Below, in pieces: positions 26,107 through 26,864 of a stretch of DNA of 64,000 bases. The notes beneath the pieces were generated by a model. It saw nothing but the letters and a program-made list of their open reading frames with translations, was not told where the DNA came from and ran no database searches. Both the position numbers and the translations under genes were made by a program. Source of the DNA: a virus. Where the stretch lies: IMG/VR virus record IMGVR_UViG_3300042516_002421, positions 2,443 to 66,442 of that record. One strand, written 5' to 3'. Numbering within the stretch: position 1 is the first letter of the stretch; every line of letters starts with the position of its first letter.

Positions 26107-26864
26107 GCCTGCCAAACCAGTCCCTGCCATGCCGTGCGCTACCAAACCGAGACTAGCCTAACCTGCCTTGCCAAACCTGAACTTGCCCAGTCCTTCCATT
26201 CCAAGTTACGCCTTGCCTGCCGTACCTGTACGAGCCTGTCCTTGCGCTGCCTAGCCCCGCCTAACCTGCCAAGACACACCGCACCTCGCGCTTCCGTGCC
26301 CCATCTAGCCTGCCGAAACAGTCCTTGCCATACCACGCCTAACTCGGACTCTCCTAACCTGCCTTGCCGGACCGTACCACGCCACACGTCACCTCTCGAC
26401 GCCATGCCCCGCCTGCCATGCAGTGCCGAACCCGTCCGCGCCCAACGCGACCATGACACAACTTGCCTGCCGTGCCAAACCAGACCAGAACCTGCTGAGC
26501 CGAGACGCTCCGCTCCTAGCCTGCCGTGCCGTACCCAACCGGGCCTTACCAGACCTCACCTCAACTTGCCCGTCCGTTCCTGGCCTGCCATACCCAATTG
26601 AGCCGTACCATACCAAGCCAAACCGCGCCGAGCCTGCCGTACCAAAGCAAACCAAACCGCATCGAGCCGCGCCGCTCCTAGCCTGCCGTACAGTAACTAA
26701 CCATGCCGAGCCGCGCCCAAAAGCGCCTCTCCGAGCCTAGCCACACCTGCCGTACCAAACCAGACTCGACCGCACCTCAACTTGCCGCGCCAATCCTGGC
26801 CTGCCGAGCCTAAACGCACCGGGCCGGTACAAGCCCAGCCTGTCCCAGACTTGACGAGCCTGCG
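26107..26864 (-). repeat. Non-coding 5-nt-periodic array: 14 units of (GGY-NN)8-12 separated by GGCAGGY; putative guide-RNA array
   Basis: RCCTGCC on + strand at 26107, 26161, 26215, 26264, 26308, 26357, 26411, 26465, 26519, 26583, 26632, 26681, 26745, 26799 and degenerate at 26858; every spacing is 5n+4. Confidence 0.9.

Follow-up and report, generated by a model that had tools for sequence, protein, structure and literature searches.

A probable VIPR guide-RNA array in an uncultured freshwater phage and the predicted proviral target of one of its guides

VIPR is a CRISPR-related DNA silencer that was first described in 2026 (bioRxiv 10.64898/2026.04.26.720920), and it is outlined here according to the available parts of the preprints cited. 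The system consists of a phage-encoded minimal RAMP protein, termed Vipr, and an accessory gene, vap. Its guide RNAs (vrRNAs) have at least 4 and typically 9-16 YNNGG repeats, and the NN dinucleotides pair with double-stranded DNA according to a "1-nt skip rule", by which the base left unpaired is usually at the codon wobble position. The system acts against competing phages, satellites and prophages, and self-targeting is described as absent. Seven types have been published, as well as "staggered arrays", in which vrRNAs overlap by 1 nt. The Vap proteins of types II, VI and VII are winged-helix or HTH proteins that interact with DNA (all from bioRxiv 10.64898/2026.04.26.720920).

The structural basis is one protomer per repeat, with the GGY bases flipped out and the NN bases presented (bioRxiv 10.64898/2026.04.26.720927). 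The same work shows that in the Vipr of Escherichia phage SUSP1 the GG bases are contacted by residues H17, R138, D177, W178 and R179, and H17, D177 and W178 are reported to touch G1 and G2. The VIPR code appeared in three bioRxiv preprints of 2026, including 10.64898/2026.10.15.759431. Because the gapped code was already published in 2026, the locus described below is not of a new kind.

The present locus resembles staggered-array VIPR, as the available account describes it, in a phage-borne vipr with one accessory gene, in YNNGG units with hypervariable NN, and in guides that directly adjoin one another, overlapping or shifting register by 1 nt. It also shares predicted mobile-element targets under a wobble skip and the lack of self-targeting. 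Its blocks of 8-12 units are within or close to the published range of 9-16. The predicted target differs from those in the available account, i.e. it is a proviral Sak4-like recombination gene, neither part of a satellite nor a regulator of lysis and lysogeny.

Type II VIPR (SUSP1 and a Pseudomonas fulva prophage) likewise has a homologous Vipr and the GGY/NN code. The type II vrRNAs are described as about 100 nt long with a structured 3' tail/pseudoknot, whereas the guides here are about 40-65 nt and have no invariable tail or pseudoknot.

Class 1 CRISPR-Cas effectors (Cas7, Csm3 or Cmr4 filaments on a crRNA) share the RAMP fold with the Vipr-like protein of this locus. As in VIPR, there is one protomer per guide repeat and the thumb causes periodic unpaired positions. 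The class 1 guide has a period of 6 nt with 5 pairing, whereas in the VIPR type, as published, the period is 5 nt with 2 pairing and the target period is 3 nt. CRISPR-Cas loci have identical repeats of 25-40 nt, unique spacers, and cas1/cas2 or effector cas operons; none of these were found among the neighbours searched here.

The array and its flanking genes

The stretch of DNA analysed (64,000 nt, termed the window) is nearly the whole genome of an uncultured phage of ~66 kb. The DNA runs that contain the locus are lake-water and freshwater metagenomes; no RNA run was found to contain it. The host range is freshwater, probably Burkholderiales. Table 1 lists the features of the window that are discussed.

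Table 1. Positions of features in the window
Feature	Positions	Strand	Remarks
Single large ORF	9319-16536	+	2405 aa
Candidate vap gene, 151 aa	25626-26081	-	phrog_15946
Probable vrRNA array	26108-26862	-	14 guide blocks of 8-12 units; no protein coded
Guide 5	26313-26357	-	NN on + strand: GA / AG TT AT AC TA CG TC TA
Guide 7 (string 4)	26416-26465	-	AT GT GA CG GC CA CG AT AC TT
Guide 8 (string 1)	26470-26519	-	GT AA AG AG CT GA GA GC GC TA
AT-richer segment	26863-27066		~200 bp, separates vipr from array
Small ORF, 62 aa	26869-27057	-	within the AT-richer segment
Predicted vipr gene, 220 aa	27067-27729	-	phrog_4652; minimal Cas7-like RAMP, predicted guide-RNA coat
ParB-like, helicase and primase genes	28649-31839		
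Word with palindrome, ACATGTACATTTGTACA	36100-36190		17 nt, two copies ~60 nt apart
Terminase genes	near 36.5 kb		

The array is situated in a leftward operon between the 220-aa and 151-aa genes, and its minus strand is the sense strand of both. It is made up of ~150 pentamers, which read CCNND on the plus strand and YNNGG on the minus strand. The pentamers are grouped in blocks that are split by a 4-nt junction (CCTG on the plus strand, CAGG on the minus strand), and the count of 14 blocks comes from a Viterbi parse. When the array is divided at CCTG, the block lengths are 5n-1 (39, 44, 49, 54 and 64 nt; overall 39-69 nt). Consecutive blocks are shifted by 1 nt in register with no long tail between them. 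The missing tail and the 5n-1 lengths therefore fit the staggered form and not type II.

The composition of the pentamers was determined over 1568 units in 167 distinct blocks from the window array and related arrays. Position 1 is C in 86% of the units and G in 0%, and position 2 is C in 88%. Positions 3-4 are close to uniform. Position 5 is G in 52%, A in 35%, T in 13% and C in 0%. Among the units, only the one next to the junction is semi-conserved; T occupies its second N in 70% of cases. The sequence-only reading had quoted four NN strings from the array, and all of them are present in the sequence exactly as written; e.g. the pentamers of string 1, CCGTG CCAAA CCAGA CCAGA ACCTG CTGAG CCGAG ACGCT CCGCT CCTAG, yield the guide 8 dinucleotides of Table 1.

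Autocorrelation of the window array shows an identity of 0.50 at lag 5, compared with ~0.19-0.29 at lags 1-4 and 6-8, and further peaks at lags 49, 54 and 59. A period-5 Fourier scan in 300-nt segments failed to pick out the array, owing to the change of phase at each junction; autocorrelation detected it. The array is the sole copy of its kind in the 66,442-base genome. Tandem and repeat-family scans of the region showed the pentamer array only and no CRISPR-like repeat, and a search of the array against Rfam gave no match. Among 16 neighbouring ORFs that were compared with Pfam and PHROG, none belonged to a Cas family. With blastn, positions 25600-27800 gave only one weak, unrelated match of 146 nt in 50,697 phage records. 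A protein-coding function of the array was rejected, as its translation is implausible as a protein; ORFs of 88-155 aa run across it in several frames.

A nucleic-acid structure was considered as another explanation of the array, i.e. two-layer G-quadruplexes or R-loops of the minus strand or i-motifs of the plus strand, for example at a replication origin near the helicase and primase genes. The GC skew of -0.32 over positions 26001-27000, the GG at every 5 nt, and the ParB-like, helicase and primase genes of Table 1 are compatible with it. Structure alone leaves unexplained the lack of C at position 5 and of G at position 1, the 5n-1 block lengths, and the target matches given below, and as an account of the array it is extremely improbable. 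G-quadruplex, i-motif and R-loop DNA, rut sites and telomere-like repeats were dropped as candidates on the Vipr homology and the target matches.

A second strong GC-skew peak (+0.38, positions 36200-37000) represents G-rich but otherwise ordinary coding DNA where the late/terminase genes begin, and not a second pentamer array. The two copies of ACATGTACATTTGTACA are found just upstream of a G-rich small ORF and the terminase genes and are possibly a packaging or regulatory site.

The family profile of the 220-aa protein (A2), when compared with PDB, matches 36pp_D, "SUSP1 Vipr protein", with E=2.5e-10. The alignment spans profile residues 16-188 and chain residues 4-181. The single 220-aa sequence gives E=0.0019 with the same chain and has a low identity to SUSP1 Vipr. 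An AF2 model of the protein (pLDDT 77.6) resembles Csm3, Cmr4 and type VII Cas7 in fold, with 41 chains matching at E<=1e-3. On this basis the 220-aa protein is a Vipr homologue with a RAMP fold. The nearest prophage Vipr is in Azohydromonas aeria (71% identity).

An HMM alignment suggests which of the residues that contact the GG bases are retained. R138 (thumb Arg) and R179 (G-loop Arg) of SUSP1 Vipr correspond to R147 and R188, which are invariant in the clade; these two arginines appear to be conserved with type II. In the clade, the equivalents of H17, D177 and W178 are E32, A186 and G187, with the alignment of the loop being uncertain. The G-loop, published as GDWRP for SUSP1, reads GAGRP in the clade and is followed by a 12-residue Ser/Gly-rich insertion that ends in an invariant FG.F (positions 27700-27620 and 27175-27135; residues 32 and 186-199). 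The distant relatives L038-L041 have H and D/E-W at the equivalents of H17 and D177-W178, and distant relatives retain G(D/E)WR, like SUSP1.

The AF2 model of the 151-aa protein (pLDDT 88.7) displays a small alpha/beta N-domain (H-H-H-beta-beta) and a 50-residue C-terminal helix. Its likeness to winged-helix proteins is weak (Foldseek E>1; VIA Z about 6). The protein is a candidate Vap with a winged-helix-like N-terminal domain, as judged from the model.

By homology with SUSP1, the leftward early operon would be transcribed through vipr, the array and vap, and the minus-strand RNA would bear the blocks of YNNGG units. One Vipr protomer would bind per unit, with the GGY bases hidden and the NN presented. 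The NN would then pair with double-stranded DNA that reads NN-x-NN-x, one target base being skipped per unit, and binding of the guide would keep the target from being transcribed. With the codon wobble position skipped, one guide would cover synonymous variants of a conserved protein motif. The purpose that we infer is to block the early recombination/replication operon of resident or co-infecting phages in a Burkholderiales host.

Conservation and change of the locus

Forty-one IMG/VR loci (L001-L041) that encode a homologue of the 151-aa protein, with 30-99% identity, were used as relatives. The 220-aa homologue is found in all 41 (it is cut by contig ends in L007, L008 and L022) and a period-5 array in 40. 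In 37 of the 41 loci the array is immediately upstream of the vap homologue; it is downstream in L038 and L041, and on both sides in L039. In L040 vipr and vap are present and an array is absent by the threshold used. The linkage of vipr, array and vap holds down to 20-38% protein identity. The homology to Vipr, together with the array and its linkage with a candidate vap in 40 of 41 loci, therefore points to a VIPR system, and the array is very probably the guide-RNA (vrRNA) array of such a phage-borne system.

The relatives retain the CC rhythm, the CCTG junctions and the semi-conserved junction-proximal unit but differ in their NN. Arrays of distant relatives, whose Vap is 27-31% identical, read GGC-NN and have the same GGCAGGC junction (L039:3700-3870, L039:5060-5230, L038:4441-4900 and L041:4421-5520).

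Nothing separates the vipr stop from the array in L001, L002 and other relatives, and at this place L001 carries an additional guide. The AT-richer segment of the window is possibly a small insertion. Its 62-aa ORF has no match in Pfam, PHROG or NCBIfam.

Contigs from metagenomic runs display changes within the array; they are contigs and not reads, and carry no frequencies. In a contig of lake run X8, position 26357 is joined to 26466, and the 108 nt that are gone are exactly two guide blocks. The X8 contig also has 5-nt insertions within guides, behind positions 26622 and 26647. Natural variation of such arrays therefore involves both whole guides and single pentamers. In another run, the neighbours of guide 5 are those seen in L002. 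A comparison of the window with L001 (99% Vap identity) shows whole blocks lost or gained as well as point changes.

Codon phase and the predicted target of guide 5

The sequence-only reading had proposed that the NN strings spell gapped targets, NN-x-NN-x, with x at the wobble position. This is the published 1-nt skip rule (bioRxiv 10.64898/2026.04.26.720920, as given in its available part). The gapped code is also borne out within the present clade by the codon-phase likelihood, by a family of in-phase target sites of guide 5, and by guides of the relatives. These will be described in turn.

For the codon phase, 147 distinct guides (1260 NN) were compared with the codon statistics of 43 long phage ORFs, with either strand allowed for each guide. 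The mixture log-likelihoods are -3484 for phase 1-2, -3580 for phase 2-3 and -3667 for phase 3-1, with -3527 for the dinucleotide background. Pseudo-guides cut from genes in phase 1-2 show the same order (-3423, -3498 and -3644), and for pseudo-guides cut in either of the other phases, the phase of the cut comes out first. The coherence of strand within guides in phase 1-2 was reached by 2 of 2000 permutations. Guides of related phages are not independent of each other, and the figures are therefore no more than indicative; with this limit, of the three phases it is codon positions 1-2 that agree best with the composition of the NN.

A search for self-targets covered the genome as well as the 41 loci, 353 kb in all with the arrays masked, and there was no self-target signal. 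The means of the best NN match (0.787-0.793) are alike for 0-, 1-, 2- and 3-nt skips and for shuffles. The earlier remark that no convincing self-target was seen in the genome thus holds in this larger set.

Guide 5 is the most widely kept of the guides. It is present in at least 16 relatives, including L001-L010, L022, L032 and L037, the other guides of which differ. The query consisted of the eight NN that follow the junction-proximal unit, joined by single Ns. This 1-nt skip pattern matched at least 120 IMG/VR loci, and among the matches listed 118 of 120 fall in one BLAST cluster. The control, in which the order of the NN was reversed, gave 16 scattered IMG/VR matches. In 301 Burkholderiales genomes there were 2 matches, both at a YDRYVIKL motif, and none in a backwards control. 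No guide 5 site within 2 mismatches was found in the genome of Azohydromonas aeria, which has the related prophage Vipr.

The 120 IMG/VR sites and the 2 Burkholderiales sites were examined together. YDRYVIKL is encoded by 121 of the 122 in the frame in which NN are codon positions 1-2, and 117 are inside an ORF of >=150 aa. The seven skipped bases vary over the 122 sites, which comprise 27 distinct 23-mers, the commonest being found 21 times; as the sites were retrieved with a gapped pattern, this variety illustrates tolerance and is no proof of it. The target gene matches PF13479 AAA_24 (E=3.7e-50) and the Sak4-like phrog_124. An AAA_24 homologue is lacking in the phage itself, where the best tblastn match has E=0.28.

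The GA of the junction-proximal unit of guide 5 mismatches the target, and this mismatch supports the reading of the unit as a handle. The junction-proximal unit of each block appears to be a handle that is outside the guide, and in this detail the sequence-only reading is not supported.

Each of five target contigs checked is classed as a provirus. In the provirus G303 the early operon that contains the target also encodes an SSB-like protein and a Cas4-domain exonuclease. This operon (L224:110-5733; G303:40110-45733) also carries an excisionase-like regulator and a ParB-like gene that is related to that of the phage (phrog_1033, phrog_4715). The shared ParB-like family shows that attacker and target have some early-gene families in common. 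From these matches, the predicted natural target of guide 5 is the Sak4-like recombination ATPase gene of proviruses, with the wobble bases skipped.

All 147 guides were then compared with the 122 target loci (178 kb). With a 1-nt skip, 7 guides match with 0 mismatches and 4 with 1 mismatch. Skips of 0, 2 and 3 nt gave no match under 2 mismatches, and neither did 294 shuffles. The comparison of gaps of 0-3 with shuffled NN, which had been suggested from the sequence, thus singles out the 1-nt skip at these loci.

Two further guide families converge on the gene that has the guide 5 site. Guides of L018-L021, L024-L027 and L030 match perfectly at 22 sites that encode the peptide VKADVGFN, and guides of L012-L016 at 2 sites that encode NKKISRA. 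Both sets of sites are in the same AAA_24 ORF as the guide 5 site and in wobble phase. Three independent guide families thus match three sites of one AAA_24 ORF. A guide of L011 and L017 has 1 perfect site in the neighbouring gene, and a guide of L023 also has 1 perfect site; the frame of these two is ambiguous in the GC-rich DNA.

The match of guide 5 to AAA_24 may also be viewed as a coincidence, within a true VIPR array, that is inflated by an over-represented gene family. Homologous matches are not independent, and the 118 loci amount to one match on one motif. Small homologous clusters also occur in the control and in other scans, and 16-base patterns yield 13-21 chance matches in IMG/VR. 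Against coincidence are the retention of guide 5 in at least 16 relatives with otherwise different guides, the wobble phase of its site, and the two more independent guide families that match the same ORF perfectly, with a third on the neighbouring gene. No comparable matches are seen under other skips or in the 294 shuffles, and the chance of hitting so large a family by accident is below 1% by a rough estimate that is inferred and not computed. Coincidence is accordingly quite improbable, and the Sak4-like gene is retained as the predicted target.

In the five whole target proviruses (262 kb), no other guide of the window matches within 1 mismatch. All perfect matches of real guides in these proviruses are in the AAA_24 locus. 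Among 441 shuffled controls, the best match was perfect in 1 case and had one mismatch in 5, which shows that short guides are noisy.

Six other patterns from guides of the window, searched at database scale, gave matches at chance level or none. The 9-NN pattern of guide 8 has 21 scattered matches in JGI metagenomes, on unrelated contigs with a GC of 0.37-0.69. Guide 7 has 2 matches in IMG/VR, which are one homologous pair and at chance level. The 11-NN patterns of guides 9 and 12 each gave 0 matches in an exact IMG/VR scan. The 8-NN core of guide 12 has 21 matches in IMG/VR, in which only 0-3 of 8 extra NN bases fit, and that of guide 3 has 13, in which only 0-1 of 2 extra NN fit; both are at chance level. 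The peptides read by eye from the strings (VKRRLEEAAY etc.) are without a confirmed target, two of the four strings having been searched with only chance-level matches. A convincing target is thus at hand for 1 of the 14 window guides.

TRAP binds triplets spaced 2-3 nt apart around a protein ring. The array could by analogy be an RNA or DNA scaffold that offers many sites to a protein with sequence-specific binding, or a sponge, with the NN as mere spacers. TRAP-type binding, like the array, has a fixed triplet with a 2-nt spacer and blocks of ~10-11 units; the fixed 3-nt motif, the 2-nt spacers and blocks of about ten units would suit a scaffold, as would the 13 of 14 guides that have no known target. 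In a scaffold, the codon 1-2 composition of the NN and their strand coherence would have no place. Nor would the matches of guide 5 and of the relatives' guides to one foreign gene locus with a 1-nt skip only, by which the spacers here carry target information. The adjoining protein, moreover, is a RAMP, homologous to the solved RNA-guided Vipr. A scaffold is therefore highly improbable, and the guide-array reading is preferred. A TRAP-like ring RNA and iterons or a centromere for a winged-helix protein were dropped as candidates, given the Vipr homology and the target matches.

Place of the locus among VIPR systems

The locus adds to a known kind of system a staggered, tail-less array, a divergent G-loop and a newly assigned, predicted natural target. 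The gapped, wobble-skipping guide code had been deduced from the raw sequence alone; the deduction was correct, though the code was already published.

The clade could represent a mechanistically distinct VIPR variant, characterized by tail-less guides, an altered reading of GG, and remodelling by gain and loss of guides and pentamers. This is a tentative proposal and rather unlikely on present evidence. The guides of the clade may be delimited solely by the 1-nt register shift. A Vipr in which three of the five GG-reading residues are replaced and the G-loop is enlarged may recognize GGY, and define the ends of guides, in a different manner. If the proposal is true, the remodelling of arrays could reveal how the VIPR repertoire is renewed without Cas1.

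The analysis tests the 1-nt skip independently and with controls, in a Vipr clade that is far from SUSP1 and with the natural guides of ~40 uncultured phages. It also adds a target class that is absent from the available part of the published VIPR account, i.e. a Sak4-like ATPase of a proviral early operon, which appears to be targeted at several sites by different phages. The codon-phase likelihood of NN strings may serve as a database-free flag for guide arrays whose targets are still unsequenced. The locus in addition hints at how guide arrays change in lake populations.
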